From Verrucomicrobiota bacterium (lineage in GTDB: Bacteria; Verrucomicrobiota; Verrucomicrobiia; Opitutales; Coraliomargaritaceae), in assembly GCA_039815375.1 (NCBI GenBank), contig JBCBZJ010000009.1, positions 46,296 to 110,295 on the forward strand: a stretch of 64,000 nt of DNA. The letters are read 5' to 3'. Position numbers and translations under genes: made by a program. The notes beneath the pieces were generated by a model. It did not search any database and was not told where the DNA came from. It worked only from the letters and a program-made list of their open reading frames with translations. Below, one piece after another: positions 2,397 to 29,044 of the stretch. The first letter of the stretch is position 1. The number at the start of each line of letters is the position of its first letter.

Positions 2397-5300
2397 TTAA
2401 GTGACCATTGCTCTCATATTTTCGATTTCCTGGTTGCGCAGAGCGGTTGCTAGGTCGGTCACATGTGGGGCGGTCATCATGGAGAGGTGCGTGCCGGGAA
2501 CTTCGATAACGTTGACGGTAGCCGGGCTATAGTCCTGCCAATTTAGTTTGTGGTTTTGGCTTGAGCTCATTTCGCCCAGATCGACATCACTCTCTTGCGC
2601 TTTATAGAGTGTGATTGGCAAATCTACCGATAAGGCGTCAGGCTGATATTGTAAGGTTGCCATCGCGTTATCTCTGTAAACTTGGACGTATTTCCCGAGT
2701 GCTCTGGCGTTGATATGATCCGAGAGAACTTTGTGGCTGAGCAGGCGATTATGCAGTAAAGTGATCTGTTGGTCGTGGTTGAGTTTACGAAGGCCTTCGA
2801 TGCTTAGCTGCAAGTCGATGTGATACAACTTCTGCATCCGTGTGACGATATGTATGAGCCAGGTGGCGGTGTCCCAACTTTCGTATGGGCGCTCGTGCAT
2901 AGCGGATGGGGCGGGGTTATCGAGAATACCTAATTGCTTGATATTTCCCGCAGCTTCCGTGCCCAGCTGGCGCACCATCTCATAGGCGACGAGGCCTCCA
3001 TAGGAATGGCCGATCAGGGTGTAGGGTTGGCGGGCAAAGGGAGCTTGCTTCAGTTCATCGAGGTAGAAGGCAGCAGTCGCCTCGATGCCGGATTCTTCAG
3101 GTTTTCGTTCGGATAGCCCGACACCCTGCAATCCCCAGAGGGTGTAGTCGGGCTGTAGCAAGCGTGCGAGTTCATTGTAGTAGAGGATACTGCCCCCTGC
3201 GCCCGGAATGCAGACAATGGGCTCGCCCTCTGTGTTCGGAAGCAGGGGAGTCAGGATGGACTCGATCGAGTCTTCTGCAGTGCTAATCCACTTGGCTTGC
3301 TGCGATATGGTCGTGTTTGAGAGCACTTCCTGCAAGCTGAGTTGTGCTTCCAGACGTTCTTCGATGGTTGCGAGCAGTTTCACTGCAAGGAGTGAGTGAC
3401 CTCCGGTCTCGAAGAAGTTATCATGAATGCCGACGGTATCGACTTCGAGAGTTTCTTTCCAAATGTCCTGTAGAGTTCGCTCTAAGTCTGTCTGCGCTTC
3501 TGCGAAGCCTGTCTCGGTTCCGTTGGAAAGATTATCAAGCAGTTGTTTGATATCGGCTTTGCCATTGGGGTTAAGCGGTATCCGTTTTACTGGATGGATG
3601 AGTCCTGGGACCATTTGTTCCGGGAGTTGTTTTCCGGCCCAATCACCAAGCAATTTTGGTAGTTCTTGCAGGTTCTGGTCTGCTTTGGGAACGACGAAAG
3701 CGACTAATTGTGCATAGTCAGTTCCAGCTCGTTTGACGGTAGCAACTGACTGCTTTATCCAGCCGGACTCCTGGAGTGCGGTTTCGACTTGAAGCGGCTC
3801 GATGCGAAAGCCTCGTAGCTGAATTTGCCGATCGCTGCGACCAAGCAATTCAAGTGTTCCATTGGGTTGCTGGCGTGCGAGGTCTCCGGTCTTGTAGGCT
3901 CGCGGGCCGTTGCTGCCCGGCAATTGGACAAATGCTCGCTGGTTTGCTTTAGAATCCCCATGATAACCTGAACTTAAGCAATCGCCTGCGATGTAGACTT
4001 CTCCGGTTTCGCCTTTAGATACAGCCTGTAAATCTGTGTCCAAAATATAGATACCGGTGTTGGCAATGCATTGGCTGAGAGGAAGCGTCGCCGGGAGGGC
4101 GCCGTTGTCGTCGAAAGCTTGCAGTGGATGACTGAGAACCCCGATCGTAGCCTCAGTCGGTCCATAGTGATTGTAGATTTGGCAATGTGGTGCGAGTTTT
4201 CGTATCTCTCGAATCCACCCGTAGTCGGCTCCTTCGCCGCCAAGGATAAGGCTTTTGCGAGGGAAGAGTTCGGTGCTGGTCTGGGTTTGCAGCAGGGTTT
4301 TCCAATGGGAGGGGACGATCTTTAGATAATCGACTGCATTATCCTGCATGAAAATGGCAAATCTACGCGCATTGAGGCGGTCCGGTTCAGGCATGACATA
4401 TAAAGTGCCACCGCTGACGAGAGAGAGGAAAAGCATGGTGTTGCCGAGATCTGCCGCGAGTGTTGAAACGAGGGCAAAGCGTGCACGCTCCTCTATGCTG
4501 AGGTCGGGCATCATGCTCAGGATATAGTTGGCGACGGACCGGTGGGAGATCGGGACTGCCTTGGGCCGTCCGGTTGAGCCGGAGGTGAAGATAATGTAAG
4601 CGGTGTCTTCTAAACGAACAGCGACAGGAGTGTCAGTAGCTTTTGGCCGGGAGAGCAGGTCATCGACTGTAAACCTAACAGCGGTTATCTCCAGGCTGGT
4701 TAGTGACTTGGGTGCTTCCGAATCCACGAGCACGGCTAATGCCCCTGCGGTTTGAACCATATATTGCAGAAGGTCTGCGGGGTATTGCGATGGGTCCAGA
4801 GGGAGATAGGTCGCACCGATTTTGAGGACTGCTATAATACTACAGAGCGCTGCGTCGCTCGACTGGTTGCCGATGGCAATCACATCGCCAGTTTGGAATC
4901 CCCGTTGCGATAGGTTTTGGGCAAGTTCATTCGCGGCTTGATCGAGTTTCGCGTAGCTGAGCGTCTTGATGCCGTTCGAGTAGGCGGGGCTGTTTGGGTG
5001 TTCCACGACTTGTTGCTCAAAGAGTCTGGTCAGGCATTGGTCCGCCGCGATTTCTATGGTTGGGCCTTGCAGGCAAGGTTCCGGTGTAACGATCTCCGGT
5101 GGCGCGGTCCGTTGCCAGTTATTCAAGTCTGAAAATCGTGTTTGCGGATCGTTTGCAAAAGTCCTGAGCAGCATTTGATAGTCCTCTGCGAAGTGGCGAA
5201 TGGTGGACTCTTCAAACAGATGACAGTTGTAGCCGAAGGTTGCCTGCAATTGGCCGTTATCTTCTAGCAGTGTCAGCGTTAGGTCGAATTTCCCATCGGC

Positions 5301-6615
5301 CTGCCGGAAATCGAAGGTTTCGAGGTCGCTCTGTTTCCCTTGCTTTTGCTTTATATTGGTAATCGCTTTTCGAGTCAGGAAATTGAAGCTGATGTCGAAG
5401 AAAGGTGAGCGATTCGGTTGCCGCTCCGGCTTCAATTTCTCGACGAGCCAAGGGAAAGGCGCGTCGGCGTGATCCAGTGCTTCGCGGCTCTGCCGGGCGC
5501 TCAGGCGTAGCCACTGATCGAACGTATCCGTTGCTTCGGTTTTGACGGAGCGTATAATCACCGGATTGACGAAGTAGCCAACGGTCGAGGCATATTCGGC
5601 ACGTCCACGTCCTGCTGAAAAAGAGCCCAGGATCAGATCGTCACGTCTGCTGTAGTCATGTAGTTGATAAGCAAATACAGAAAGAAAAAGTGAGAATTCG
5701 GAAATATTCTCTTCGCGTGCTATCCCGGAGAGCTGCGAGTGGATTTCTTCAGGGACGATGCTTCGGATAGAAAGGCCCTCAAAGGTGAGGGTCGGAGGCC
5801 GGGGGTGGTCTTGTGCAGGGAGTGTGATGGGGTGTGGTGGATCTGCCAGATTCTCCTGCCAGTAGGCGAAGTTTGCCGCGCCCTCGGGGCTGCGGAGCAA
5901 TTCCTGCTCTTCGCGGGCATGATCGAAATAGGAATGTTTTTCCGGTTTGAGCTGCGGTTTATTGCCCGAGACAAGAGCATTTAGAATAGTATGCAGTTCC
6001 TGGCGTAGCACCTCTCGGGTACCATCCGTCACAGATGATGTGATGCATGGTGAAGAGCACGGTGCTGGGAGTGGTCCCGTCCTCGGAAAAGACCCTGAAG
6101 CGCACGGCTGCACTGGTTTCCAGATCGAACGGTGCTTCGTGTGCTTTGCGGGCCGCTGCATCGCGTTCGTTCATCGTGCATTGAGACAGATCGCTCCAGG
6201 CGCAATCCATGACTGCCGGATCGGTGCGCTGCTGAATCGGCTTCGTGGCATGAAGTGGAAACCGTGTGGAGAGCATGGGGTGGCGATCCAGGAGAATCCT
6301 GAAGCTCTCGATCCAGTTTTCATAGCTTGCACCGAGCGGCGAGGTCAGAGGGATCGATTGATTATAGGCGCTGCTCTCGGGGGCGAGTTTCCAGATGTAC
6401 CAGAGGGCACGTTGGCCATAGGTCAGTGGATAGGCCGAAAGCTGGTACGGCTCGTTTTTTAGGATATGGAGCAGTTCGGATTTATACTCACGGATACGCG
6501 GTAGAATCTCCTCCGTTGGCACGCTTTCCGGTGCCCTGAACTTGAGGCGATCCCCTTCCATCCAGAAGGACCAGCGCTCCAGGCTCAAATCGATAAAGAA
6601 TTCAAGTGGACTCAT
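2397..6615 (-). CDS. Terminal NRPS module: beta-hairpin docking domain-C-A(Asp code)-PCP-TE, interrupted by a +1 frameshift at ~6020 (pseudogene or sequencing error)
   Basis: ORF 5959-6615 encodes a TubC-type N-terminal docking domain and the C domain up to HHIICDGW. ORF 2397-6161 continues with REVLRQEL, A3 YIIFTSGSTGRPK, A5 NHYGPTE, A7 YKTGDL, PCP GGHSLL and TE GHSYGG. Removing T6020 restores HHIICDGWSREVL and one ~1405 aa frame. Confidence 0.9.
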
Positions 6616-9600
6616 ATTTCACCTTCTACCCACTGCGTTGCTGCACCTGCCGCGGAAAGTTGTAGCACTTCCGATTCTTTCTCGGTGGAATCGAGCGCTT
6701 CGGCGACTAGTTGGATCAATCCCGACAGCTCCAAATCCTGAAGGTGTGGTGTCTGCTTCAATTCGATGAATAGGTCTTGTTGTAGCTGGATGCGAAGCGC
6801 CATACTCATGATCGAGTCCATGCCCTGGGAGTTGAAATTTGCGCCTGGATCGACCGCGGAGGTAGATGAAAGACCAAGAATCGCAACGAGCACTTTGCGC
6901 AGATAGCGTTCGAGACGCCGGGAGCGTTCTTCGTCGTCAGCGCTGGCATTGAGCCATTCCAGGACGGACTCGGTCGACTCTTCGTTTTTGCGGTCCTTTG
7001 TCGCGCTCCATTGAGTTTCGGTGCAGCACATTTGCTCGAAGTAGAGGACCGGTTGCATGGAGCTGGTCTCACAAATGAGAATATCGACACTGAGCTTTGT
7101 CTCTGCGAATGTGTTCGGTGATTCGCGAACCTGAACGTGGTAGTCGCCCTGGGGTTCTGCATCGCCGAAGAGGATACTTGCCGCTTCTTCGGGGACAAAG
7201 AGCTTCCCCGGTGCTTTTTGTAAGATAAAAGCTCCCAGGGCTTGTGATGCAGCATCGAGCAAGGTGATCCACGGTCGATCGGGGTGGCTATCGGATGCAG
7301 GCGCAGGAATCGAGATTCTGGTCTGGATTGCTTCCGGCGAGCTGATGAGCTGCTGCATTGATTGCAGAGCAGGCGCAGTTTGAAAGCCTATCCGCTGGGA
7401 GCTTTCGTAATAAGTGTTCCCTTCCGTTGTCGTTTGCCCAGAGGCTGGTGTTGGCTTTGGCCATTGCTCCTGCGTATTCCAGGTAGCTGGCGAAGCAGGA
7501 AGATGGGCGGATGCGATGGTCTGCCAGCCAGCTTCCGGAGTGGGGCGCGCGAAAAGCGTTGCTTCAGCTGTTTCCGTATTTGGCTGGGTGATTTCGGTAT
7601 GCAGTGTGCAGCTCTCTTCCGTTAACTCGACGGCATTAAGGAGGGTAAGGTCACGAATTTCGTAGGTTGCGCTTGTCTGGCAGACTTCCGCTGCCTTGCG
7701 AAGAATGGCTAGAATGGCAGCATTGGGAAGGTAGGTCTTCCCTTGTATTTGCTGCTGCTTCCAGAATTTTGGCTGTGATCTGGAGCAGTGGGATTCAAAA
7801 CGGCGGGAGTTCGCGGTGCCTGGCAGCGTGAGCGCTTCACCAAGCAGTGTTCGGTTGTTGATTGCTTTTCCGTTCGAACGACTCTTTGCCCTATCAGGTT
7901 CGATCCAGTAGCGTTCTTTTGCGAAGGGATAGCTGGGAAGAGTGGTTCGTTTGCCGGGGTGATGACGATGATAATTCTGCCAGTTCGGTAGATATCCTGC
8001 CTCGTAGAGCTGGCCGAGTGCTTCGATGATGTGATGGTCATCGTTTGTCCTCGGGTGCAAGCTGCTGACCATGCTTATTTTGCTGCACTCGGGTATGCCT
8101 TGAGCCAGATTGAGCAGGGTAGGCTTGGGTCCGAGTTCCAGAAACAGGCCACAGCCGTTTGCGACTACCTGTTGGAGGGAGGCTTCGAAGCGAACCGTGG
8201 CACGTATCTGCTCGACCCAGTAGTCCGGTGTGGCGAAGGCTTGGCTTTCGAGTTGGCCGGTCATGCTGGAGATAACCGGGAGCGTGGGGGAATGGTAGCT
8301 TGTCTCTTGAGCGATGGTGCGGAATGGCTCAAGCATAGGATCCATCAACTCGGAATGAAATGCGTGTGAGACATGTAGTCGGGTGCATGCGACGGAACGT
8401 GCTTTCAGCAATTCGGATACTTGCTCGACTGTGCGAGTCAGACCTGAGAGCACGACGCTGTTTGCGGTGTTGACTGCTGCGACGGAGAGCTGCAGCTGGC
8501 TGTCCGACAACAACTCGAGAATAGTCGCTTCATCGGTTTCAACCGAGAGCATGGTGCCATTTTCTGGCAGAGACTGCATCAGTTGGCCACGATGTCGAAC
8601 CATACGCAGAGCGTCCTCCAGTGAGAAGACACCGGCAAGGCAGCAGGCGGCATACTCGCCGATGCTATGTCCGAGAAGGGTATCGGGTTCGATGCCCCAG
8701 TGGGCCCAAAGTTTGCCGAGTGCGTACTGTAGCGCGAAGAGGCAGGGCTGCGCGAATTCAGTGCGATGAATGCTTGTGCTTTCTGCAGACTCGTTTTCCC
8801 CACTTCTCCGAATCGTCTCGAGTATTGAATATCCCTGAGATTGCGCGATGGCCTCGCATGCGTCGATTGTGGCGCGAAAGATAGGCTCTGTTTGATACAG
8901 TCCGTATCCCATTTTTGGATACTGGGAGCCCTGTCCTGTAAAAAGGAAGGCGAGTTGTGGTCGGTATGGTTCCACTCTTTTTGCGGGTGCTTCCATCTGC
9001 TGACCGATTCGTTCCGCTGCTTCCTTACGTGAACGGATCGCATAGGCTTCGCGATAGGCAAAATGAGAACGCCCGAGATTGCTCGTCTGGCAGATGTCTT
9101 CCAGCGGCTTGCCAGAGTGCGAGAGGAAAGCCCTGTAGCGTTCGCGCATTTGATTGAGGGCACTCGGTGTCTTCGCGGAAAGGGTAAGTAAATGAGAACG
9201 GCGGCGCAGCTCGGACACATGATCCGCCGAGGCATTGGGGATGCCCCCTCTATGCTCCGATAAAATAACGTGTGCGTTGGTGCCACTGATGCCAAATGAG
9301 CTGACGCCGATGGACTGATTTGGCGCAAAGGTATCCCAGCATACGCTCTCCTGACATACCTCGATGGGTAGTGTTTCCCAATCGATATGGGGGTTCGGTT
9401 GCTCGAAGTGAAGTCCGGGCAGGAATTGGCGTTTCTGTAGCTGGAGTGTCGCCTTAATCAGGCCCGCTATGCCTGCGGCTGCCTCGAGGTGACCAATGTA
9501 GCTTTTGATCGAGCTGACCAGAAGCGGCGATGAAGAGCTATGTGAACGGGCGAAAATCTCTCCGAGGGCCTGAGCCTCGATGGGGTCACCGAGGGAAGTG

Positions 9601-12221
9601 CCGGTTCCGTGGGCTTCTATACCGATGATCTGTTCTGCATCGACCTGACTGTTACGCAAAGCCTGGCGGATGACATCGCGCTGGGCCAATCCACTCGGAA
9701 CAGTCAATCCGCTGGTATGGCCATTGTGATTGACCGCGGAACCTTCGATTGTGGCGAGAACTTGATCTCCGTCCTCGAGAGCTTGTTGCAGTGGCTTCAG
9801 GATGACGATGCCGCAACCTTCTCCGCGAACATAACCGTTTGCGGCCGCATCAAAGCTTCGGCAGCGTGCCTGGGGCGATAGGGCATGTGCCTGGCTCAGG
9901 TAGATCGAACTTTCGGGAGAGGTCAGCAGTTGAACCCCGCCGACAATTGCGGTTCGGCAGCTTCCGTCCCGTATGCTTTGGCAGGCTTGATGGACTGCGA
10001 CGAGTGATGAGGAACAGGCGGTGTCGACGGCTACGCACGGTCCTTGAATGCCGAGGAAGTAGGACAGGCGTCCGGCCGCGGTGAAATGCGCATTGCCGGT
10101 GCCAATATAGCCTTTCTCGTGCAGGCGCTGATCCATATCCAGTCGATGCGCATAGTCCGCATGACTGATGCCGACGAAAACACCGGTTTGCGAGCCATGT
10201 AGCGTACGTGGTGCGATGCCGGCATGTTCGAGGGCCTCCCAAGTGACTTCGAGTAGCCAGCGCTGCTGAGGGTCTAGGGAGATTGCTTCCTTGGGCGAGA
10301 GTTCGAAGAAGCCGGAATCAAAGCCGGCGATATCTTCGATAAAACCACCCTGGCTCAGATAGGCTTCCTCCGGGGGGATGCTCCATCGGTTTTTGGGAAC
10401 GGAACGGATCGCGTCTGTGCCTTCGCTGAGTTGTTCCCAGAGTTCTTCTGTTGTGCTGGCTTCTCCGGGGAAGCGGCAGGCCATGCCAATGATGGCGATT
10501 GCTTCATTTTCTGAAGATGGATCTGCCTCACCCGAAACATTTTCCTGAATCGATGCTGCTTGAACGCCCGGTGCTTTCAACTGTGCGATGTATCTACCAA
10601 GTGCCTGGGGAGTTTGATAGCTGAAAAGTAGTGGGGCTGCAATCGATACGTCCAGCTGTTGATTGAGCTCGTCCACCATACGAACTGCATCAATTGAATT
10701 GAGGCCGAGCTGGAAGAAGCCCAGTTCGGGATTGAGACTTCCGCTTTCATCCAGTTCGAGAATGTTACGGATGGTCGCAAGTATGGTCCCGGTAAACTGC
10801 TCGCTGAGCTGCCGTTGGGGAATGCGCCCTAAGTTTGGGGCGGATGCTTTATCCTTTATTTCGGTTTGCTTCGGATTTTGGGAATCAAGAAAAGGAGCGG
10901 AGCGGAGGGCTTGGCAAAAATTCGCTACGTCCACTGGGTAGTTGCGGACGAAAAGAGTGGCGACAAAAGTCAAAAGTTGCTCGATGCCGGGTTTGTTTTC
11001 CAGACTTGTGGCCTGTGCGAAGCAGCCCTTGCCTCGCAGAGTATCCCGAACGAAACCAGTCAGACGTCCACCAGGGCCAACTTCCAGGAAATGAGTTATG
11101 CCGTCCCGATGCAGTTGTTTGAGAGTCTTTACGAAACATACCGGAGTCAGCCATTGCTCGATCAATTCCTTCATCAGTTCGGTGCTTTCAGAACCGAGAC
11201 GCTGACCGGTTGAGCAGCTGTAGACTGGTGTCCGGGGGCCCAGCAAATCAAGCTCGGCATAGGCCTCGCTCAAAGCCTGCCGTGTGATAGGAAGCCGTTC
11301 GCTATGTGCAGGAAAGTCCATACCCGACAAAATAGCGGCGGTCTCACCATGAGAGGACAGTCCTCGAATCAGCTCGGGAAGTTCTTCATTCTTAAGACAG
11401 TAGATACTCTGCTGCGGGCAGTTGTCCTTGGTCAGCGTGAGCGAGGGAAAAGTCGAAGCGTCCAGGTCCTCCAAAGTATTCCTTGCCGATGCCGTAAGGA
11501 TCGCCATAGCCCAGTCGTCGTTGGAACCATCTTCAACCTGCAGTTGACTTGCGAGTGTTTGGAAAAGTTCGAATATCGGTTCAACCTCCGAGACGTAGCC
11601 ACCAGCGTAAAGGCAGGTCGCCTCACCGATACTATGGCCCGTGACGACGTCCGGAGAGATTCCGAGAACTTCGGTTAGTAGGTAGTAACATGCGAGGTTG
11701 CTGAGAACAATGCTATCGATATGATGCAGATACTTGCGTTGCAGCTTATGAAGCGGCTGCGCGGCTCCTTGATTCTTTGTGCGACGATACGGAAACAGGC
11801 TTGGATTAGCTTGAAAACGTTCCTGCAGCTCAGGACTCAGACTGGCGAACCAAGCCTCAATTTGAGGGAAATGTCGGTGCAGGTCGTCAAAAAGACTCGG
11901 GTGTTCCGCACCAAAGCCGGGAAATAGGAAGGCTGTTTTGGGTGGAGGATCGGCCGTGTAGCGATAGAAGATCGAGGTGCCAATGGTGAAGCTGGCCTTT
12001 TCACTTTTACTCAGGCGCTCGATGGCCTGGGCTCTAAGCCTGTTCAACTCTGTCGGCGAATCCGCGATCAATGCCAGCCGATGGCTTCCGCTTCCCGGAT
12101 CGCTCACTGCATCCTCGCTGCCTGACTCGATCAGCTGGAGCAGGGAGATCTTACTCTCTGCGGCATAGGTAAAGAGGCGTTGCTTGCTAAGCCTTCGTGA
12201 AAACATGCCAAGCTTACTCAT
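6612..12221 (-). CDS. Type I modular PKS: loading AT-ACP + KS-AT(malonyl)-DH(inactive)-ACP + C-terminal docking motif
   Basis: Motifs in order: AT GHSIG, ACP LGLNSI, KS DTACSSS/HGTGT/GHLEAAAG, AT GQGSQ/GHSIG/HAFHS, DH-like QQQIQGKTYLP, ACP GMDSI, C-terminal WVEGEI. Its stop overlaps the NRPS start (ATGA). Confidence 0.93.
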   Translation of the reverse strand: MSKLGMFSRRLSKQRLFTYAAESKISLLQLIESGSEDAVSDPGSGSHRLALIADSPTELNRLRAQAIERLSKSEKASFTIGTSIFYRYTADPPPKTAFLFPGFGAEHPSLFDDLHRHFPQIEAWFASLSPELQERFQANPSLFPYRRTKNQGAAQPLHKLQRKYLHHIDSIVLSNLACYYLLTEVLGISPDVVTGHSIGEATCLYAGGYVSEVEPIFELFQTLASQLQVEDGSNDDWAMAILTASARNTLEDLDASTFPSLTLTKDNCPQQSIYCLKNEELPELIRGLSSHGETAAILSGMDFPAHSERLPITRQALSEAYAELDLLGPRTPVYSCSTGQRLGSESTELMKELIEQWLTPVCFVKTLKQLHRDGITHFLEVGPGGRLTGFVRDTLRGKGCFAQATSLENKPGIEQLLTFVATLFVRNYPVDVANFCQALRSAPFLDSQNPKQTEIKDKASAPNLGRIPQRQLSEQFTGTILATIRNILELDESGSLNPELGFFQLGLNSIDAVRMVDELNQQLDVSIAAPLLFSYQTPQALGRYIAQLKAPGVQAASIQENVSGEADPSSENEAIAIIGMACRFPGEASTTEELWEQLSEGTDAIRSVPKNRWSIPPEEAYLSQGGFIEDIAGFDSGFFELSPKEAISLDPQQRWLLEVTWEALEHAGIAPRTLHGSQTGVFVGISHADYAHRLDMDQRLHEKGYIGTGNAHFTAAGRLSYFLGIQGPCVAVDTACSSSLVAVHQACQSIRDGSCRTAIVGGVQLLTSPESSIYLSQAHALSPQARCRSFDAAANGYVRGEGCGIVILKPLQQALEDGDQVLATIEGSAVNHNGHTSGLTVPSGLAQRDVIRQALRNSQVDAEQIIGIEAHGTGTSLGDPIEAQALGEIFARSHSSSSPLLVSSIKSYIGHLEAAAGIAGLIKATLQLQKRQFLPGLHFEQPNPHIDWETLPIEVCQESVCWDTFAPNQSIGVSSFGISGTNAHVILSEHRGGIPNASADHVSELRRRSHLLTLSAKTPSALNQMRERYRAFLSHSGKPLEDICQTSNLGRSHFAYREAYAIRSRKEAAERIGQQMEAPAKRVEPYRPQLAFLFTGQGSQYPKMGYGLYQTEPIFRATIDACEAIAQSQGYSILETIRRSGENESAESTSIHRTEFAQPCLFALQYALGKLWAHWGIEPDTLLGHSIGEYAACCLAGVFSLEDALRMVRHRGQLMQSLPENGTMLSVETDEATILELLSDSQLQLSVAAVNTANSVVLSGLTRTVEQVSELLKARSVACTRLHVSHAFHSELMDPMLEPFRTIAQETSYHSPTLPVISSMTGQLESQAFATPDYWVEQIRATVRFEASLQQVVANGCGLFLELGPKPTLLNLAQGIPECSKISMVSSLHPRTNDDHHIIEALGQLYEAGYLPNWQNYHRHHPGKRTTLPSYPFAKERYWIEPDRAKSRSNGKAINNRTLLGEALTLPGTANSRRFESHCSRSQPKFWKQQQIQGKTYLPNAAILAILRKAAEVCQTSATYEIRDLTLLNAVELTEESCTLHTEITQPNTETAEATLFARPTPEAGWQTIASAHLPASPATWNTQEQWPKPTPASGQTTTEGNTYYESSQRIGFQTAPALQSMQQLISSPEAIQTRISIPAPASDSHPDRPWITLLDAASQALGAFILQKAPGKLFVPEEAASILFGDAEPQGDYHVQVRESPNTFAETKLSVDILICETSSMQPVLYFEQMCCTETQWSATKDRKNEESTESVLEWLNASADDEERSRRLERYLRKVLVAILGLSSTSAVDPGANFNSQGMDSIMSMALRIQLQQDLFIELKQTPHLQDLELSGLIQLVAEALDSTEKESEVLQLSAAGAATQWVEGEI

Positions 12222-12482
12222 TTCGGGATTTGATTTTTAGGATCATTCCATGAAAGCCTTTTGAAATTTTTGTTAGCATACGTTTGTTTTACAATCTACT
12301 TGCCTTTTCAAAATATTGTTTGCTCTTTAGTCAAGGGTTCGAAAATTTCTATTTCAAACGCCTGATATACCAGACAAAACAATGATTCTACCGGAAGCAG
12401 GTTAAGTCTTTGATCCGTGGAGTTATCTGTCCCGTTCAGGGACTTTTTTAATTAAATCAATACCACTAAACGAAACATCAAA

Positions 12483-12788
12483 ATGATCAGAGAAAAGAAC
12501 GATATACTTGTGACAATTTCCGGGATTCTGACGACAATGCTGGAAGACATGGGTATCGAGGAGGAGATTGAGACTGGTTCCAAACTTGTTGAGGACCTGG
12601 GATTTTCATCGGTAGATTCCCTGCACATTATGGCATCAATTGATATGGAATTGGGTAAAAAATTGCCTTACGAAAAATTGGTTTTACGTGGAGGCCAATA
12701 TGTAAGCGATCTGACGGTTCAGGAATTAGCTGATTTTGTCTACGACACACAGGATCGCGAAGACCCTGAGCCAATGAAGATGTCGTAG
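12483..12788 (+). CDS. Discrete acyl carrier protein
   Basis: Acidic 101 aa protein with LVEDLGFSSVD (phosphopantetheine Ser) and DLTVQELADFV. Confidence 0.85.
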   Translation: MIREKNDILVTISGILTTMLEDMGIEEEIETGSKLVEDLGFSSVDSLHIMASIDMELGKKLPYEKLVLRGGQYVSDLTVQELADFVYDTQDREDPEPMKMS

Positions 12789-12789
12789 C

Positions 12790-17998: not shown

Positions 17999-20932
17999 TT
18001 GGTCGTGCCATCTGTCGGAACACACTTCAACTACTTCATCTCGGCTTCATCCCGGGCGGCTTTGCTGGATAAGTTGCGTGAGCTGCAGAAGCAGGTGGAG
18101 TCGCCGGGTGCATCCGAGACCTGGATAAAGGGTAATGAGATCGGGCTTACGCGTGAAGCGGGTTCCTTCCGTGCGGCGATTATTTACACCGGGACTTCTG
18201 ATTTCACGGAGGCTCTGGTGTCGGGCATCGAGAGGATGCAGAAGTCTGAGCGTTCCCATCTCCAGACTCGTCAGGGTTTTTATTTTCATAAGGTCGATGA
18301 AGTTGCGGTTGGTGGACAACTCGCCTTCGTCTACCCCGGGTTTGGCTCCGAGTACGCCGGTATGGGAGCAAGTTATAACGGATTGGAACCAATCGTCGAA
18401 GAATGGTTTCAGCATATTGATGACGAGCTAAAAGGATGGTTTTACCAATCCGGCTCCGGGGGCGCAGCAGAGAGTGGAAAGCGTCTGGGAGAGTATGGTC
18501 AGAGTGGCCACCTGCTGGCGATGGGATTGATGGATATCCTGCAACATCACGGGCTGGAACCCGATGTGATCGCAGGGCACAGTAATGGCGAAAACTCTGC
18601 GCTGTATGCGGCCGGGTTTGTTACATGCGAAAGCCGTGAGCAGGAGTTGCAGGTCATGGCCGAAGTCAATACTACGGCAAATTCGAATGCAGAAACGGTT
18701 GGCGAGTTTATCATCGTGGGCCAGATCGGGAGAGGTGCGCTGGATGCGGTTTTGAGCGAATTCGACGGCGAAGTGGTGGTGGCAATGGAAAACTGCGCCA
18801 ACCAGTTTGTATTGTTTGCCACATCGCTGGTCTCAATGGATGCACTGATCGCCAGAATACTTGAAAGTCGGGGCATCGCCTTTCCCTTTTCGCGGAATCA
18901 GGGTTTCCACACTCGCTTTTTCAAGAATCAGGAAAGCCGTATTGATGCAACTTTCGAGCGCCTGGCAATCGGAGTCGGACATAAGCCGCTCTATAGTTGC
19001 ATAACGGGAGAGCTGTTCCCGTTGGAGTCCGTTGCGATTGTTGCGACGGCGAAACGCCAGTGGTTCGAAGAGGTGCGCTTCCGCAGTATGATTGAACAGA
19101 TGTATGAGGACGGCGTGCGTCAGTTTATAGAAGTAGGTCCGAATAACCGTCTATGCGGATTCATTGGCGATATTCTGCGTGGCCGGGGGTGCTTGATTGT
19201 GGCATCAAGTGTCACCACACGCGGGGGATGTGAACAGATCGCACACTTGCTCGGGCAGTGTTTTGTTTTCGGCCTGAATGTTCAGGGTCTCGGTGCGGAA
19301 GAGAACTCTGTGAAAAAGCACGAGCCCATCCCGGTTGCCCAAACTGAAGCGCCTTTGCCGAGAGCAAAGGCGGTAGTTAGCTCTGTGCCTCAAGTTGCGC
19401 CGACGACCTCGCCGCTTCGCGCTGCGATCATGATGCGGCACGAGGCGCTGATGCGTGCCTATTTGCATACCGAAGAACAGGTCAGTAGCTCGATCTTCAG
19501 CCATTTGAGCAGAGAGCCCCGGATTCCAGAAGTGATTGATCCGCAGAGTTCCGGTCCCTCCTCTGAGGGTGGGTCGATGGCTATGCCCTGTATCGGTCAT
19601 CAGTATGAGCTGCACTCAGGGCACTTACTTGGGCAGCGGAGCCTCTGTCGTGATACGGATGCTTACATATTCGACCATACTTTTGGTAAATCGACAGCTA
19701 CGGGAGAACACGGGCCTCTTCCGGTTCTACCCTTTGCAATTAGCGTGGAAACTGCAGTTGAGGCTGCGAGCTTGATTCATGGAGAACGTTTGAGCCGTTT
19801 CGAACTTGTGAATGTGCGGGGCATGGAGTGGGTGATACTACGCGAGCAGCAGCAGCCGCTGGTTATCGAAGCAAGTCAAGTGCAGTCGAATACGGTAAAT
19901 GTGCAGTTGAAGCATGTGAAAGCATCAGGTGAAGAGCCGAGCCTCTTCTGGTCGGGTGATGTCATTGCGCTGGATGAATCGACGGATGCGATTCCTTGCC
20001 TGGAATTGAATCGCCGGGCTCTGCGTAAGCCTCATTCCAGCGCTCAGGACTACTATCGCGATGTCTTGTTCCATGGTCCCATGTTTCAGGGGATCGCCGA
20101 GGTCTCCGGTTTTAGTGATGACTCGATTGAGGCAATTTTGCAGATGCCTGATTTTTCACGAGCTGTGAACGGATATACGGCGACTCAATTTTTAACGTCG
20201 CCGCCGCTGGCAGATTGTGTCGGGCAGTTGGCAGCTTTCTGGGCGCTTGAATATTTGGATGACCCGGAGTTGGCAGCCTTTCCTTTTAAGATTGAGCGGG
20301 TGCGCTACTATAGGTCCATTCCCACGGCAGGTGAACGTATCCATTGTGTGGGTAAAGTCCGTGTCATCGGACAGTCGATTCTGGAGGCTGATTTCGACTA
20401 TTTTACAGAAGAGGGGCAGCTCTATGCGCAATATCGCGGGTTCTCTCAACGCTTCTATCGCAACCGTTTCATACCGCGTATGGTCTATCAGCAACCCTCT
20501 GCAGTTCATTTTTCCGATCTGGAAACACATTCGCAGGAGGGGGAGTCGACTCTGCGCAGCGTTAGTGATGATGCGATTCCCTTCCTAATGGGTAGCGATG
20601 GATTTTGGGCCAATGTTTTGGCTTATCTGGTCTTGTCGCCCAGCGAGCGCCAAGAGTGGCTTGATCTAACGCGTGATCAAGTAGAACGGGAGCCTGTGCA
20701 ATGGCTGGTGCGTCGGGCTCTGGTTAAAGACATCTATCGTTACTGGTTGAAAAGATGCCATGAGAGACCCTGTTCTTTGCTGGACTTATCGATTGAGGAA
20801 TGCGGCCTGGACCAGTTCAACGTTATGCAGGCGAATTCCGATTCTCAATCGCTTCGAGTTTCTTTGGTGAAGCATGCGAAACGATTGGAAGGGTGGTTTC
20901 AGGCTGAGGAAAGCGCCGTTTTTATCGATTGA
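17999..20932 (+). CDS. KS-less PKS subunit: AT-linker-DH-degenerate PPTase-like tail
   Basis: AT motifs AFVYPGFGSE, GHSNG, GFHT and FIEVGP; DH motifs DHTFG...LPVLP, LFHGPMFQG and DCVGQ; C-terminal LSPSERQEW...WLVRRALVKD resembles the N-half of a PPTase. Confidence 0.8.
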   Translation: MVVPSVGTHFNYFISASSRAALLDKLRELQKQVESPGASETWIKGNEIGLTREAGSFRAAIIYTGTSDFTEALVSGIERMQKSERSHLQTRQGFYFHKVDEVAVGGQLAFVYPGFGSEYAGMGASYNGLEPIVEEWFQHIDDELKGWFYQSGSGGAAESGKRLGEYGQSGHLLAMGLMDILQHHGLEPDVIAGHSNGENSALYAAGFVTCESREQELQVMAEVNTTANSNAETVGEFIIVGQIGRGALDAVLSEFDGEVVVAMENCANQFVLFATSLVSMDALIARILESRGIAFPFSRNQGFHTRFFKNQESRIDATFERLAIGVGHKPLYSCITGELFPLESVAIVATAKRQWFEEVRFRSMIEQMYEDGVRQFIEVGPNNRLCGFIGDILRGRGCLIVASSVTTRGGCEQIAHLLGQCFVFGLNVQGLGAEENSVKKHEPIPVAQTEAPLPRAKAVVSSVPQVAPTTSPLRAAIMMRHEALMRAYLHTEEQVSSSIFSHLSREPRIPEVIDPQSSGPSSEGGSMAMPCIGHQYELHSGHLLGQRSLCRDTDAYIFDHTFGKSTATGEHGPLPVLPFAISVETAVEAASLIHGERLSRFELVNVRGMEWVILREQQQPLVIEASQVQSNTVNVQLKHVKASGEEPSLFWSGDVIALDESTDAIPCLELNRRALRKPHSSAQDYYRDVLFHGPMFQGIAEVSGFSDDSIEAILQMPDFSRAVNGYTATQFLTSPPLADCVGQLAAFWALEYLDDPELAAFPFKIERVRYYRSIPTAGERIHCVGKVRVIGQSILEADFDYFTEEGQLYAQYRGFSQRFYRNRFIPRMVYQQPSAVHFSDLETHSQEGESTLRSVSDDAIPFLMGSDGFWANVLAYLVLSPSERQEWLDLTRDQVEREPVQWLVRRALVKDIYRYWLKRCHERPCSLLDLSIEECGLDQFNVMQANSDSQSLRVSLVKHAKRLEGWFQAEESAVFID

Positions 20933-21152: not shown

Positions 21153-24100
21153 ATGAAAAATTCGGTAACTGAACGGTTCGAATGCCTGGTTTTCACCCCA
21201 CTGCATCTGGATCATCCTGGATTAGCCATTGCTGCTGCTCAAGCAGGTGCCGTTCCGGTTTTTGATTTTGAATATGCTGCCTCGGAGTATGGATCGCAGA
21301 TTCAGGCTAATTTTCGACGATTCCTCGATGCGACTGATGCCGGGACGACTTGTTACGGAATTCGCAGTACACCGGAGCAATTGGCACGGTGTCTCGAGTG
21401 GATTGGAACAGAAGAGACGCCATTGTGTGACCGTATTATCCTCCATGGTTGGATGTCTGATAAGCTGGCAGCCACTTTGGACGAAATTGAGCCCACTGGG
21501 TGCAGGCTTTTTTTGGAAGTTACCAGTGCATCGGAGATTGAGCCGATCCGTGAGTATTTGCCGAAGATCGATGGTTTAGTAGGAAAGGGTAACGAATCGG
21601 GCGGCCGTGTTGGAACCGAGTCCTCTTATGTGTTGATTCAAAAGCTAATCGATGCGCAGGAGCTACCGGTTTATGTTCGTGGCGGTATTGGCGCGCATAG
21701 TGCCGCAGCCTGTCGTGTGCTCGGAGCTTCAGGTATTGTTTTGGATGACACGCTCTGGCTCTTTCCTGAATCACCGTTATGCCACTCTCTGGGCCCGGTT
21801 CTGCGGCGGGTGGATGTTAAAGACAGTATCATCGTCGGTGCAGAATTGGGAGCGGGTTGCCGTTTCTTGCAACGTCCGGACCTGCCTGCTGCTAGAGGTT
21901 TGGTCGATCATGCACGTCAACTCGAAGCGGCGCTTGAACGTCGCGGTGAGTCGGCAGTCCAAGCGGAGTGGCTTAGCTGTTTGAGCGATGAGTTGGGCTT
22001 TGAGGAGAAGCCGAACGGCGTAATGCCTGTATTGCCACTGGGGCCATTGGCCGTCTTCAGTGATGCCTACGCGAAGCGCTTCAAGAGCTTGGCGCGCTAC
22101 ATTCATCACATTCTCAGCTCGAGTACTGAAGCGGTGAAGCAGAGCCGCCTACAATCCACGCTTGCGCCGGACTCCCCGATGGCGGTGGATCATGGCACAA
22201 GGTATCCGATTGTACAGGGGCCGATGACACGTGTCAGCGATCGTGCCGAGTTTGCCGTTCGTCTGGCTGAGTCAGGCGGCCTGCCGATGCTGGCGCTCGC
22301 GCTTATGCGAGCCGAGCAGGTGAAAACACTTCTGGATGAGACTCGTGCTTCGATAGGCGATCAAGCTTGGGGTGTTGGTTTGCTTGGTTTCGCACCGAAG
22401 GATTTGCTGGATGCCCAGATCAAGGAAGTGCTCCGAGTAAAGCCGGGATTTGCCTTGCTGGCCGGTGGCCGCCCAACTCAGGCGGGGATACTCGAGGCTG
22501 AAGGAATCAAAACCTACATTCACGCGCCGGTTCCCAGTTTACTGACGAATTTTTTAGAGCAAGGTGCACGACGTTTTGTTTTGGAAGGACGTGAATGTGG
22601 AGGCCACGTTGGGCCTCTAAGTAGTTTCGTTCTTTGGGAAGAAGCGATCGAGGTTCTGCTACGGCACAGTCGCAGTAAACAGGCCGAGCCAGTCAGTGTG
22701 CTGTTTGCCGGTGGTATTCATGACCGGCGCTCGGCGGCAATGGTTGCTGCTATGGCGGCTCCCTTAGTCGATGCTGGTGCCCGGGTCGGTGTATTGATGG
22801 GGACTCCCTATATCTTTACACAGGAAGCGGTGGAGACCGGCGCGATTATGTCGGAGTTTCAGCAACAGGCTCGTATTTGTGAGCGCACTACGATTATCGA
22901 ATCAAGTCCCGGACATCAGATCCGTTGTTCGACCACTCCGTTTATGGATGAGTTTCGCCGGGCCCGCCGAAGTTATCTCGAGCAGGGGCTGTCTGGGGTG
23001 GAGATAAAGGATGCGCTGGAGCACCTGTCTCTGGGTCGTTTAAGAATCGCTTCAAAAGGTGTTACGCGAAGTAAGGATGGGGGACTGGAGGAGGTGTCTG
23101 CCGAGGACCAGGTTCGTGATGGCATGTATATGCTTGGCGATACGGCAACCATGCATGCGGATACCTGCTCACTTGAGGAGTTGCATCGCGAAGTTTCGAT
23201 CGGCTGTGTGGATTGGCTTCAAGAGTTGGACTTTTCCGAGCCGCCTCGCGAGCCGGTTGCTGCACGGCCCTGTCAGGTAGCGGTGGTCGGTATGGCCGCC
23301 TTCCTGCCGGGGGCTGAAGATGTGGATGCGTATTGGCGCAACCTTCTGGATCTGGAGGATTCGATGAAGGAGATTCCGCAAGAGTACTGGGACTGGCGCC
23401 TGTATTATCAGGATTTGCAGTCCGGTGAAGAACGTAATCTGGATCAAACTGTTTCCAAGTGGGGCGGCTTTATCAAGGAAGTGCCCTTCAATCCGATTCA
23501 ATATGGTATTCCGCCAAACTCACTTAAGCGGATCAGTCCGGCACAGTTGCTGGCATTGGAAAGTGTCTATCGCACGGTGCAGGATGCAGGCTATTCCTTT
23601 GATGAAATTGATCGGGAAAACACGTCGGTTATTTTCGGGACGGATGGCAGCAGTCCGTTAAAAGGACACTTCATTTTTCGCACCCTGATGCCTTTGTTTC
23701 ACTATCGTGATGATTCGATTATGGATCGTTTACCTGAATGGGGTGAGGAGGCTTTTCCGGGGATTCTGGCCAATGTCGGACCGGGGCGGGTTGCCAATCG
23801 CTTTGATCTGGGCGGAACGAATTTTGTAGTGGATGCGGCCTGCGCCTCTTCCCTCAAGGCGATTGATTTAGCGGTGCAGGAACTTGAATCGGGGCGGAGT
23901 AATTGCGTCATTGCCGGCGGGGTTGACATTGACCAGTCGCCGGAAGCTTACGTAGCATTCAGCAGTTCACACGCGCTTTCACCGACCGGACGGGTACGGA
24001 CTTTTGATCAATCGGCAGACGGTATTGTTATTAGTGAGGGTATTTCCGTTGTCATGCTGAAGCGTCTTGAAGACGCGGAGCGTGATGGAGACCGGATTTA

Positions 24101-27100
24101 TTCGGTCATTCAAGGTGTAGGCAGTTCCAGTGATGGCAAGGCGCTTGGCTTAACGGCCCCGAACACGAGCGGTCAGAAACGGGCCTTTGAGCGGGCCTAT
24201 CGCCTCTCAGGAGTAGACCCGAAAACACTCGGCTATTACGAGGCGCATGGCACGGGAACCGTCCTGGGTGACCGGACCGAACTTCAGTCTTTTCACAATT
24301 TGCTGAGTGATTCCGGTGCGGAGCCACAATCCTGTGCAATAGGTTCGCATAAAACCCTGATTGGTCATACAAAAACGGCGGCCGGGGTCACTGGTTTGAT
24401 TAAATCAAGCCTATCGCTCTATCACCGGGTCCTGCCTCCCCACAAAGGTGTCGAGGCACCGATTGATGGCGTGCAGAGCAAGGAAGACCCGGTTTGTATT
24501 ATGGATCGTGCCTCGCCATGGTGTGCTCAGGGTCAGAAACGGCGTTCGGCCGTGAGTGCGTTCGGTTTCGGTGGCACAAATACGCATATCGTGCTTGAGG
24601 AATACACTGCTTCGGGGCGTGATTTAGCCCCGGGTGCTGCAAAATGGCCCTGTGAGCTTTGCATATTCACGGCAAAGGACGAAATCTCTCTAGTTAATGA
24701 ACTGTCCGGGCACCTTAAGTTGCTGGAGTCGGCAGAAAGCAAAATCCGCTTATCTGATTATGCTTACAGCCTTGCCCATGAAGCGGAGACAAAAACTGAT
24801 TGTTCCCATGCTTTGACAGTGATTGCTCAAAACCTGGAGGAATTGAGGAAGGCGCTTGAATCCACACTCAAGATTTTGAGCGAGTCTCAATCGGAGCGCC
24901 GCTTCCCTTCGCATATTCGGTTTGCAGCCGCTCGACACGAGGCCGCAAAGATCGCCTTTGTCTTTCCCGGGCAAGGGGCCCAATACATCAATATGGCGCG
25001 TGAGTCGGCGCTCTATTTCGATGAGATCCGAAGTGTATTTGAGCGGGCGAACCAAGCGCTCGACGGCTGCTACGAAAAGCCTTTATCACGTTATGTCTTT
25101 CCTTCTGCGGCCTTCACGGAAGCAGATCGCGAGGAGCAGCGTTCCAGCCTTACGGATACCCATGTTGCGCAGGTTGCAATCGGCTCGGTCTCCCTCGGCT
25201 ACTATCACCTGTTGGAGCGTTTGGGAATCTCACCCGATGCGGTATGCGGACATAGTTATGGTGAATTTGTCGCGCTGCATGTTGCCGGTGCCTACAGCGA
25301 GGAGGCCTTTTTAAAGCTCTCTGAAGTGCGCGGTCGAGAGATGGCAAGCGCCTCTGCACTGGGAGGCGGTATGCTGGTCTGTTTCGCGGAGCGTCAGCAG
25401 ATAACGGAGTTGGCTCGGGAAATCGGCGAAGACCTCTGCATCTCGAATCATAACGCGCCGCGACAGGTCGTTCTTGCCGGAACGACCGATGCAGTGGAAC
25501 GGATGATTGCAGTCTGTGATCAGAAAGAGATTCGCTATCGCCGACTCAATGTTGCCGGACCGTTTCATTCGAGCTTAATGGAGCCCGCAAAAGCTCCGCT
25601 GGTTGAGGCGATTCGATCTGTAGAATGGTCTGAGCCCAAGATCCCGGTTTACTCGAATATGGATGGCGAATGCTATCCTGAAGATATTGATGGCCTGAAG
25701 GATTGCCTGGAGCGTCATCTTCTTCATTCGGTCGAGTTTGTCTCCCAGATCGAGCAGATGCATGCCGATGGAGTAGACCTTTTTATCGAGTGTGGTCCGA
25801 ACGGGTTGTTTTCCAAGATGATTGGGCAGATCCTGGAGGGCGAAGATCATCTTGCCCTTTCGCTAGATCGTGATGAGGGGGCGATAAGCCATCTGTTGGG
25901 TTGCCTGGCACAGTTGTTCAACCTTGGCGTTTGGCGGCTTCCCCTCCGATTGTTCAGCGGGCGGGATGTCACTTTCCTCGACTTTGCCGAGTTGCGGCAG
26001 CAGGCCGCTGAGGCGAGAAGCCAAGGTCCGGCTCCTCTTTGGTATGTCGATGGCTCCGGTTGTCGAGCTGCTAACGAGAAATTGAAACATCCAGGTAAAC
26101 TCTCACCACTCACTTACGAAGAATCATTGGAACTTATGGAGAAGCAACAACGGTTGGAAACAGGCCAGAGTCCTGGTCATCACAATGGCTCGCACAACGG
26201 AGAGCATGTCGTTATTCCGTCATCGCAGACCTCTAAGAATGGAACTTCGCATGCCTCAGGCACACCTTCGGCGTCTCCTGCTGCGGCGAAGCCGCAGACC
26301 CTTCACAGCATGCCCATGCCAACGAGCAATGTTGGAGGCCTTCAACCCAGCGAGGCACTTGCCGCTTACGAATCATACCAGCAAACCATGCAGCAGTTTC
26401 TGAAAATGGAAGAGTCGATTATGACGCGCTTCTTGCAGGGAGGCGTTGCACCTCCACATGATGTGGGCGATTTGAAGAACTCCATGGTCTCTGCACCTGC
26501 ACCGGAGTTCGTTGCCGCGCCATCCCATGCAGTATCAAATTCAAATGGTGTTGCCCCTTCAGACATGTTAGCGGAACCAACTTCGCGTGCACCGGAGTCA
26601 CCGCCGCAGGTTCCGGTAAACGCGGCTGAGGAAATGCCTCAAGCTGCTGAGTCGAGTGCAGCTTCGCCCGCTGCAACCGAGGTTGCCGAGAGCACAACAG
26701 TTGACACCCCGGATCGTGCACAAATGCAGGCCAGTCTGTTGGGTCTGGTTAGTCAACTCACAGGCTATCCTGAAGACCTTCTTGAGCTGGACAGCGATCT
26801 GGAGTCCGAGCTTGGGATCGACTCGATCAAAAGAATTGAGATTTTAACCAAGGTCATGGACCTACTGCCGTCGAGCATGAAGAAAGGGCTGAACGCCCAG
26901 TTTGAGCACCTTACTCAGATAAAGACACTGTCGGGTATTCTGGACGAGTTTGAAGCCTTTCTCGAATCTGCCGCTGCGGAGACAAGTGCGCCGGTCTCAT
27001 CGGAAAAATTAGTTAAACTTCCATCAGGGCCAATCAATGCAACGGATGCCTTGAGTGAGTCGACTTGTCCGCTTTCGGTGATGGTTAGTGAACGCACGGA

Positions 27101-28672: not shown

Positions 28673-29044
28673 ATGGGCACTCTTATCGACCAACATTATC
28701 GGGAAGTGCGCGAAAGAGCGCTTCTCTTCAGTTTCACGATCAAAGTCAATCTGGCCTTAGTTCAAGACGAGGAGGACTTCTATTTTTCTGGCGACTATGA
28801 TATCAGCGGCATCGTTAATGTCTCTGGTCAAATCGATCCAAGAGGTCCAATTACAGGGGATTGTGAAGAGCGGGTTGAACTGAATTCCGGAAATGTCATC
28901 CAATATCGGGTCGAGAACTGGTCCTATGAAGACGGTGAAGTTGCATGCACCTTATCCGTCGAAGCTGAGTATCAGGCACTCGGGAAAAAGCGCAGGGTCG
29001 TGATTTTCGAATCGGTTCAATACGCCGGGGAATTGACTTCATGA
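28673..29044 (+). CDS. Hypothetical protein
   Basis: 123 aa ORF between the PKS and the SDR; its stop overlaps the SDR start (ATGA), suggesting translational coupling. Confidence 0.6.
   Translation: MGTLIDQHYREVRERALLFSFTIKVNLALVQDEEDFYFSGDYDISGIVNVSGQIDPRGPITGDCEERVELNSGNVIQYRVENWSYEDGEVACTLSVEAEYQALGKKRRVVIFESVQYAGELTS

Follow-up and report, generated by a model that had tools for sequence, protein, structure and literature searches.

What is released by a polyketide synthase (PKS) whose only extension module appears unable to reduce, when its partner, a nonribosomal peptide synthetase (NRPS), carries an aspartate-type code and ends in a thioesterase (TE)? The question is raised by two adjoining genes of a Verrucomicrobiota bacterium (GenBank assembly GCA_039815375.1, contig JBCBZJ010000009.1), a type I PKS gene at 6612..12221 and an NRPS gene at 2397..6615, both on the minus strand of the 64,000-nucleotide stretch that we analysed and that is called the window in the following; positions refer to it. 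A preliminary description of this DNA had predicted a beta-ketoacyl-Asp or 3-acyl-tetramic acid head group. We favour, with middling confidence, the reading in which the two proteins form one line and 3-oxoacyl-Asp is released as a tetramate by Dieckmann cyclisation. Judging from its relatives, the pair appears to typify a distinct, widespread and conserved synthase family, split or fused, that is apparently uncharacterised.

The PKS protein (1869 aa) has the order acyltransferase (AT), acyl carrier protein (ACP), ketosynthase (KS), AT, degenerate dehydratase (DH) and ACP, as seen from Pfam matches and HMMER alignments, i.e. two Acyl_transf_1 stretches, two PP-binding domains, the N- and C-terminal parts of the KS, and PKS_DH_N plus PS-DH. 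The loading-type AT lies at 10932-11954, ACP1 at 10587-10784, the KS at 9402-10505, the second, malonyl-type AT (AT2) at 8040-8948, the DH at 7017-7847 and ACP2 at 6672-6863, and the C-terminal tail reads TQWVEGEI (6615-6638). No ketoreductase (KR, PF08659) was matched by Pfam in the 1869 residues at E<=1e-3, and as the DH ends at residue 1735 and the last ACP starts at residue 1787, the gap of about 50 residues leaves no room for one. It is conspicuous that the DH motif reads QQQIQGKTYLP (residues 1489-1499, window 7725-7757): in HMMER alignments to the CurK and CurF dehydratases (3kg9, 3kg6) Gln1490 (7752-7754) faces the catalytic His, and Gly1494 and Pro1499 face the Gly and the Pro of HxxxGxxxxP. 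The Asp of the DxxxQ motif is retained (DAASQ, residues 1656-1660). The KS residues Cys736, His871 and His911 are all there, and AT2 has the motifs GHSIG...HAFH, of which we take HAFH to indicate malonyl specificity. In other words, the module is predicted to be capable of condensation but not of reduction or dehydration, because the KR is absent and the catalytic His of the DH is replaced by Gln.

The stop of the PKS gene and the start of the NRPS gene share 4 bases, which makes them a translationally coupled pair. The NRPS, of 1405 aa when intact (as in independent assemblies), consists of a TubC_N docking domain (6457-6564), a condensation (C) domain (N-terminal half 6022-6435, C-terminal half 5121-6014), an adenylation (A) domain (3558-5021), a peptidyl carrier protein (PCP, 3285-3476) and the TE (2445-3221), as located by Pfam; neither a methyltransferase insertion in the A domain nor an epimerisation domain was found in it by the same means. 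The ten-residue code of the A domain, read by anchoring on the conserved A-domain motifs, is DLTKIGHIGK, which is of the Asp type and fits DLTK[VI]GH[IV]GK. DLTKVGHI is the code of SrfAB-M2-Asp, the Asp module of surfactin, and DLTKIGHV was matched to the same module (Table 2, PMC3207962), while DLTKVGHVGK is found in both Asp and Asn domains, mostly Asp (PMC12283262); our literature search found no publication carrying the ten-letter codes. The TE belongs to PF00975 (E 3e-23) and has an intact Ser-Asp-His set, with the Ser in GHSYG (2997-3011), D1081 in LDNPAP (2919-2921) and H1225 in GTHLS (2487-2489). Its closest solved relative is 4zxh, the terminal TE of the Acinetobacter AB3403 module (E 1e-19), and it is the sole thioesterase among the open reading frames (ORFs) of at least 150 aa in the window that were scanned with Pfam. 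A single terminal C-A-PCP module followed by a Ser-Asp-His TE is also the arrangement by which the synthases of polycyclic tetramate macrolactams (PTMs) and of the aurantoside type are recognised. The 271-aa ORF after the NRPS (1287-2102) was considered as a TrdC-type Dieckmann cyclase acting in trans and rejected: it has a lipoprotein-like leader and no Pfam match, and it matched no PDB chain at E<=10, hence not the NcmC entry 6E6Y either, if that entry is included. The missing KR, the replaced His of the DH, the Asp-type A domain and the terminal TE had all been named in the preliminary description and are borne out here; it had overlooked a frameshift that splits the NRPS gene.

In the window the NRPS is read as two ORFs in different frames, and the break lies right after HHIICDGW. 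ORF 5959-6615 encodes the TubC_N domain and the first third of the C domain and ends with this motif, and ORF 2397-6161 encodes the remaining part of the C domain and then the A domain, the PCP and the TE. Contigs from four public runs were aligned to window 5400-6700, and two of the four cover the frameshift site (6011..6021, minus strand), where the window has three substitutions and one extra base relative to them: both covering runs have the substitutions 6015 T>G, 6016 C>A and 6017 G>C and lack one base at 6020. The first of them has a depth of 14.7 and a single contig of 15,828 bp that is otherwise identical to the window over the 1301 bases; the second is a related strain with eight differences from the window. 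The 15,828-bp contig encodes an intact protein of 1405 aa (P0401) that reads HHIICDGWSVEVLRQEL across the junction, is identical to the two window pieces on either side of it and contains one complete Condensation domain. Since both covering run assemblies are in frame and encode an intact protein, the break would seem to be either a discrepancy of the assembly or a minor variant, and the NRPS gene is intact in the population. No second condensation domain was found elsewhere in the source genome (3.56 Mb, 99.9% complete). We note that the genome may contain similar local assembly errors in other genes.

A search with the DH-ACP end of the PKS gave only two real relatives, P0005 and P0006, which are 58% and 48% identical to the PKS overall and share its six domains and its tail and likewise lack a KR; in the His column of the DH the former has Gln and the latter His. 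The search with the NRPS gave P0009, an intact protein of 1395 aa that is 51% identical to it. P0006 and P0009 each lie on a contig of 105,415 bp and were taken as a second homologous PKS/NRPS pair. Eleven more proteins with docking domain, C, A, PCP and TE were found in the NRPS search (36-40% identical to the NRPS), and the sources named for such homologues are Promineifilaceae, Polyangium, Azospirillum and Edaphobacter. The code DLTK[IVF]GH[IV]GK and the same TE motifs are present in all single-module NRPS homologues (12 out of 12).

The fused forms surfaced only via a search with the TE domain, which gave 129 representatives at E<=1e-30. Sixteen long hits were scanned with Pfam; eight are fusions of the whole system (AT-ACP-KS-AT-ACP-C-A-PCP-TE), seven are plain NRPSs and one is of a different, KR-containing type. 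A ninth fused form, P0279, was recognised by domain BLAST, and one fused form is annotated as a type I PKS of Poseidonocella sedimentorum. Pfam found a KR neither in the eight fused relatives scanned nor in the three split PKSs, and a DH remnant in only one of the eight, whereas the Asp-type code and the loading AT-ACP are kept in all nine. Six of the eight are without any DH, and the His column varies among the remaining DH relics (Q, Q, H, Y or unalignable), which suggests that the DH is a relic and that keto retention is the conserved state. The window pair has the features by which we define the family, i.e. a TE in the 39-member clade described below, one Asp-coded A domain, a KR-less single extension and a loading AT-ACP. 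From the names of their sources, the members presumably belong to Chloroflexota, Myxococcota, Acidobacteriota, Alphaproteobacteria and Verrucomicrobiota. No published member of the family, and likewise none of the domain-order strings, was found in the literature searched.

Several other searches gave no further members. A scan of genome contigs with the NRPS kept 80 loci, at no more than 37% identity, none with a DH homologue or the same layout; the best 120 matches in a search of longer proteins for fused forms were multimodular NRPSs, with no fused PKS form among them; tblastn of plasmids with P0032 gave nothing above 37% identity; and 251 Acidobacteriaceae genomes searched with P0087 gave no match at E<=1e-250. 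The 160 genomes of the family of G063, searched with P0011, gave three matches, which were rejected, being all 37-40% identical and in multimodular frames. A search of 401 Myxococcota genomes with the TE gave 25 matches, and the four that were examined are Orn-coded (DVGEIGSIDK) and fall outside the Asp clade. The large myxobacterial genomes G496, G505, G584 and G671 (L098-L105) share a multimodular NRPS that opens with KS-AT-aminotransferase and has an Orn-coded C-A-PCP-TE as its last module; the TE of this module is 33-35% identical to that of the window. Two loci were set aside as well, namely L057, a stand-alone C-A-PCP-TE beside a thiamine pyrophosphate enzyme and with no docking domain, and L090, the best metagenome-contig locus in a scan with the PKS alignment. 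The latter is an unrelated cluster that encodes, at its positions 7156-14682, a FAAL-ACP-KS-AT protein, an HMG-CoA synthase and two enoyl-CoA hydratases (a beta-branching cassette) as well as NRPS modules. Among the NRPSs of the TE search, P0313 and P0344 have a sulfotransferase domain between modules, behind a TubC_N docking domain.

A FastTree phylogeny was calculated for 102 TE domains, i.e. the TE-search hits that have an A domain and the homologues from the NRPS search (59 rows without an A domain were dropped). The window TE is sister to that of P0009 (support 100) within a clade of 39 rows (SH-like support 97) that includes all nine fused forms. A single A domain is present in all rows of this clade, and the code is of the Asp type in 38 of the 39 and DLSKIGHIGK in one. 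This pattern suggests that the window TE belongs to a clade that is specific for this synthase design. Outside the clade, two Asp-coded rows group (support 99) with three KS-AT...A(Asn)-PCP-TE proteins, which share the architecture described for the aurantoside synthase AtsG in excerpts of PMC9802089.

When 401 Verrucomicrobiota genomes were searched with the loading AT-ACP, 11 matched, the source genome included. G945, a genome of the same order as the source, is the one of these that was looked at and taken as a family member. Its contig of 12 kb encodes an AraC regulator, a fused synthase of 2794 aa and a PF00891 methyltransferase. The synthase has the architecture AT-ACP-KS-AT-ACP-C-A-PCP-TE and the code DLSKIGHIGK, with no KR and no DH, and it was not found in 10 other genomes of G945's family. 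The methyltransferase, which has a dimerisation domain, comes directly after it, the methyltransferase start overlapping the synthase stop. The window also contains a PF00891 methyltransferase with a dimerisation domain (33047..34099, minus strand; Pfam), and the two are 34% identical over the full length (E 7e-68), i.e. closer to each other than to any solved relative. Because its counterpart directly follows the G945 synthase, the window methyltransferase is a likely partner of the head-group synthase. In the solved PF00891 relatives MmcR, DnrK and CalO6 (PDB matches) the fold mostly methylates phenolic or enolic hydroxyls, for which reason a tetramate enol would suit it better than a carboxylate. 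PF00891 also includes the N-methylating PhzM-like entry 2ip2, and N-methylation in trans by the window enzyme is a possible activity.

From these features the following route can be proposed. The N-terminal AT would load an acyl chain on ACP1, most likely from the neighbouring PfaA-like synthase described below, and the KS with the malonyl-type AT2 would carry out one extension. As the module has no KR and its DH is dead, the chain would remain on ACP2 as a 3-oxoacyl thioester. The PKS tail would then dock on the NRPS at its TubC_N domain, after which the C domain would join the chain to PCP-bound aspartate to give 3-oxoacyl-Asp-S-PCP, and the TE would take over the 3-oxoacyl-Asp. On release the activated C2 carbon would attack the ester in a Dieckmann reaction, which would give a 3-acyl-5-carboxymethyl-tetramic acid. 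The PF00891 methyltransferase would then methylate the tetramate, and the lipid would subsequently be glycosylated, aminated, sulfated and exported.

The conservation of the KR-less, Asp-coded design across the family argues for the beta-ketoacyl-Asp-S-PCP intermediate. Dieckmann release is favoured because the family has retained an extension step without reduction, which would be superfluous for a plain N-acyl-Asp, and because a conserved methyltransferase of the hydroxyl type fits an enolic product. It is also favoured because beta-ketoacyl-aminoacyl esters cyclise readily (excerpts of PMC8541288) and because cis-acting TEs with Ser-Asp-His are reported to form tetramates in bacteria (excerpts of PMC10956176 and PMC9802089).

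The tailoring genes and the PfaA-like operon are divergent from the PKS; unless stated otherwise they were assigned by Pfam and family models. The tailoring genes encode a GT28-like glycosyltransferase (12790-13965, plus strand), a sulfotransferase (13997-14734, minus), a DegT aminotransferase (14746-16284, minus), a GFO/IDH/MocA oxidoreductase (15965-17044, minus) and a PLOD-type glycosyltransferase (17117-17929, plus). The PfaA-like operon follows on the plus strand with a 977-aa AT plus PS-DH protein (17999..20932), the PfaA-like iterative synthase of 2496 aa (21153..28643), a 123-aa ORF of no family (28673-29044) and, overlapped at its start by that ORF, a FabG/glucose-dehydrogenase-like short-chain dehydrogenase/reductase (SDR, 29041..29817). 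After the SDR, still inside the lipid operon, comes a DUF6072 protein (29984-30394; Pfam). An MsbA/HepA-like ABC exporter lies at 30970..33033 (plus), and an Sfp-type phosphopantetheinyl transferase (PPTase; 34202..34969, minus; Pfam) is encoded upstream of the methyltransferase on the same strand. The SDR scores 188-192 bits with FabG models, below their cut-offs, and its best match is the glucose-1-dehydrogenase subfamily (218.7 bits, cut-off 215).

The PfaA-like synthase contains a FabK/NMO-type enoylreductase (ER), KS, AT, ACP and KR. It scores 922.8 bits with TIGR02813 over the KS-AT part, below the cut-off of 1010.1, i.e. it is related to this family but not a member by the NCBI rule. 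Its ER is fused at the N-terminal side and preceded by about 350 residues without a Pfam match. No PfaC-like protein with KS and chain length factor (CLF) was found in the window. We presume that this synthase is the source of the long acyl chain, and hand-over to the PKS is plausible because it has no thioesterase or reductase domain for release.

The G+C content is 0.52-0.55 at window 4000-28000 versus 0.47-0.50 elsewhere in the window, and a search of 60 related genomes, of which 8 belong to the same genus, found neither the NRPS nor the AT-DH protein. The raised G+C together with this absence points to a horizontally acquired island. Beyond the PPTase, and adjoining it, a 1369-aa protein is encoded (35674-39783) in which only a C-terminal laminin-G/concanavalin-like domain is recognisable. 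Further on there is a polysaccharide-utilisation stretch (40459-62103) with a sodium:solute symporter, a 3-keto-disaccharide hydrolase, three sulfatases, a GH130 phosphorylase, a XylR/AraC regulator, a TonB-dependent receptor and a 1247-aa protein without a family.

A number of points weigh against Dieckmann release, and some of them lend weight to a particular alternative. Cyclising and hydrolysing TEs are not separable by any known sequence signature, 4zxh has no tetramate link, and the clade into which our tree places the window TE is apparently not the one expected to hold AtsG. The tree contains no proven Dieckmann TE sequence and for this reason assigns no chemistry. Moreover, Dieckmann chemistry does not need strict Asp, which may signal some other use of the side-chain carboxylate. 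The main rival is hydrolysis by the TE, which would yield a linear N-(3-oxoacyl)-aspartate with two free carboxylates, one of them perhaps methyl-esterified; we consider this unlikely, though still to be reckoned with. It agrees with the ordinary Ser-Asp-His set of the TE and with an invariant Asp that fits a product needing a free dicarboxylate, and the nearest TEs outside the Asp clade are the terminal TEs of multimodular NRPSs without a beta-keto group (the Orn-coded myxobacterial proteins). Nevertheless, an N-acyl-Asp needs no PKS extension, so that the universally kept unreduced module suggests that the keto group is used; the ready cyclisation of the esters (PMC8541288, in excerpts) and the preference of the solved PF00891 relatives for hydroxyls, not carboxyls, also speak against hydrolysis. 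The keto group might also be lost earlier, as a reductase acting in trans, e.g. the SDR, is possible; the product would then be a 3-hydroxyacyl-Asp, hydrolysed or lactonised. The SDR does score with FabG models and sits in the cluster, but the scores fall below the cut-offs and the glucose-1-dehydrogenase subfamily matches better, the gene belongs to the PfaA-like operon at 17 kb from the PKS, no SDR was seen beside the G945 synthase on its 12-kb contig and the absence of the KR is conserved across the family, all of which makes us regard trans reduction as improbable.

The link of the PKS/NRPS to the long chain is one of adjacency, and this also weighs against the proposed route, as does the fact that the association with the methyltransferase is known from two loci. 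No PfaA-like gene lies in the 2.7 kb visible upstream of the G945 synthase or elsewhere on its 12-kb contig, which suggests that the family is independent of the PfaA-like synthase. The window might accordingly hold two neighbouring clusters, one in which the PKS-NRPS makes a small 3-acyl-Asp compound from a short or ordinary fatty acyl starter of primary metabolism, and another in which a glycolipid of its own is made by the PfaA-like synthase, the glycosyltransferases and the sulfotransferase. Such a division is in line with the N-terminal AT-ACP, which resembles an ordinary loading didomain and, as noted, is kept throughout the fused forms. On the other hand, the PfaA-like synthase would then have no thioesterase or reductase for release, the PKS-NRPS operon adjoins the tailoring and Pfa-like genes back to back within a single stretch of raised G+C, neither the NRPS nor the AT-DH protein was found in the 60 relatives, and the N-terminal AT of the PKS shares 29-30% identity with that of the AT-DH protein. 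We hold two separate clusters to be quite unlikely, less so than trans reduction but more so than hydrolysis. The frameshift inside the C domain could finally mean that the NRPS is a pseudogene here and that the PKS product is released without Asp, which is very improbable, given that both run assemblies covering the site are in frame, that the encoded 1405-aa protein is complete and that the remaining bases of the 1301 are identical in the deepest run. The tetramate reading thus remains the one we favour. With respect to the preliminary description, the beta-ketoacyl-Asp head group gains from the family-wide absence of the KR and the Asp code, although the possibility of trans reduction stays with it; Dieckmann formation of an Asp tetramate has a proposed precedent in AtsG (excerpts of PMC9802089), but the window TE lies in its own clade, apart from the aurantoside-like proteins. 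The TE phylogeny that had been suggested as a check gave that placement.

If the proposed route is correct, a small gene set (two synthase genes, PPTase and methyltransferase) would suffice for Asp-derived acyl-tetramates. It would also represent a bacterial route to long-chain glycosylated tetramates, which so far are sponge isolates for which no published genes were found, and a clade of look-alike synthases across several phyla would be open to mining. Acyl-tetramates are metal chelators and membrane-active antibiotics, and in view of these activities the family could play a part in competition among microbes in the sea and in soil. If, by contrast, the TE only hydrolyses, the family would represent a new class of 3-oxoacyl-aspartate lipids, still undescribed.

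Among known systems, the PTM synthases of the ikarugamycin and heat-stable antifungal factor (HSAF) type are bacterial PKS-NRPSs in which a cis-acting TE with Ser-Asp-His makes the tetramate from a beta-ketoacyl-aminoacyl thioester. The window pair differs from them, as they have an iterative KS-AT-DH-KR-ACP, use ornithine and employ two chains. Asx-derived tetramates of bacteria have already been published, namely epifadin, aurantoside and bripiodionen. According to excerpts of PMC9802089, AtsG of 'Candidatus Poriflexus aureus' is a PKS-NRPS with a terminal TE for which Dieckmann release of the tetramate is proposed. Like the window pair it has one malonyl extension, an Asx unit and a terminal TE, with glycosyltransferases and an O-methyltransferase in the cluster; unlike it, it uses Asn and not Asp, its chain is a chlorinated polyene from an iterative PKS and not a PfaA-like chain, and the excerpts describe no loading AT-ACP, which the window PKS has. 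We note that this comparison is one of architecture, since Asn-coded proteins of that layout fall into a different TE clade. In the epifadin system of Staphylococcus epidermidis (EfiE; excerpts of PMC11310079) a polyketide likewise terminates in an Asp-derived tetramate of bacterial origin, but the PKS is of the trans-AT type, a condensation-like domain takes the place of the terminal TE, and the product is a peptide-polyene; Asp-tetramate fragment ions of m/z 158.045 and 140.034 are reported for it. TrdC, SlgL, NcmC and BpdE are free-standing Dieckmann cyclases that off-load beta-ketoacyl-aminoacyl thioesters as tetramates; according to excerpts of PMC10956176 they are separate Cys-Asp-His proteins of about 270 aa that act with NRPSs without a TE, whereas the window NRPS has its own.

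On the side of the chain, the resemblance to PfaA-type synthases lies in the TIGR02813 match over KS-AT, the FabK-type ER, the KR and the accompanying AT-DH protein; the differences are the score below the cut-off, the lack of a PfaC-like KS/CLF in the window and the presumed passing of the chain to the PKS-NRPS. Our literature search found no publication on Verrucomicrobia together with tetramic acid and, in the titles and abstract openings that it returned, no described gene cluster for melophlins; words that begin with 'aspart' are absent from a 2020 review covering 277 tetramates of marine microbes. No biosynthetic genes for the ancorinosides were found in the literature searched either, and 'biosynth' occurs 0 times in PMC8541288. 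As the preliminary description had stated, these sponge compounds are long-chain glycosylated tetramates: excerpts of PMC8541288 give ancorinosides A-D as N-methyl-D-Asp tetramates with a long alkyl tether and a disaccharide of hexose and uronic acid. Since bacterial Asp and Asn tetramates had already been published, the bacterial origin suggested in the preliminary description would be new only for tetramates that are long-chain and glycosylated. The analogy drawn there holds for the predicted scaffold but not for the details. The ancorinosides are N-methylated and D-configured, whereas the window NRPS has neither an N-methyltransferase nor an epimerisation domain and the window methyltransferase appears to be of the O-methylating type; the DegT aminotransferase, the GFO oxidoreductase and the sulfotransferase are additional and bring in predicted amino-sugar and sulfate functions, with no counterpart among the ancorinoside features given in those excerpts. 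The likeness is therefore one of predicted scaffold only, i.e. sugars joined through a long alkyl chain to an Asp-derived tetramic acid, and the two glycosyltransferases and the PfaA-like synthase can be set beside the disaccharide on its alkyl tether as genes present. We tentatively propose, while thinking it doubtful as a whole, that the family makes methylated 3-acyl-5-carboxymethyl-tetramic acids in many bacterial lineages and is here coupled to a PfaA-like very-long-chain synthase and to sugar and sulfate tailoring, so that the product would be an ancorinoside-like glycolipid tetramate and the locus the first genetic template for that sponge chemistry.

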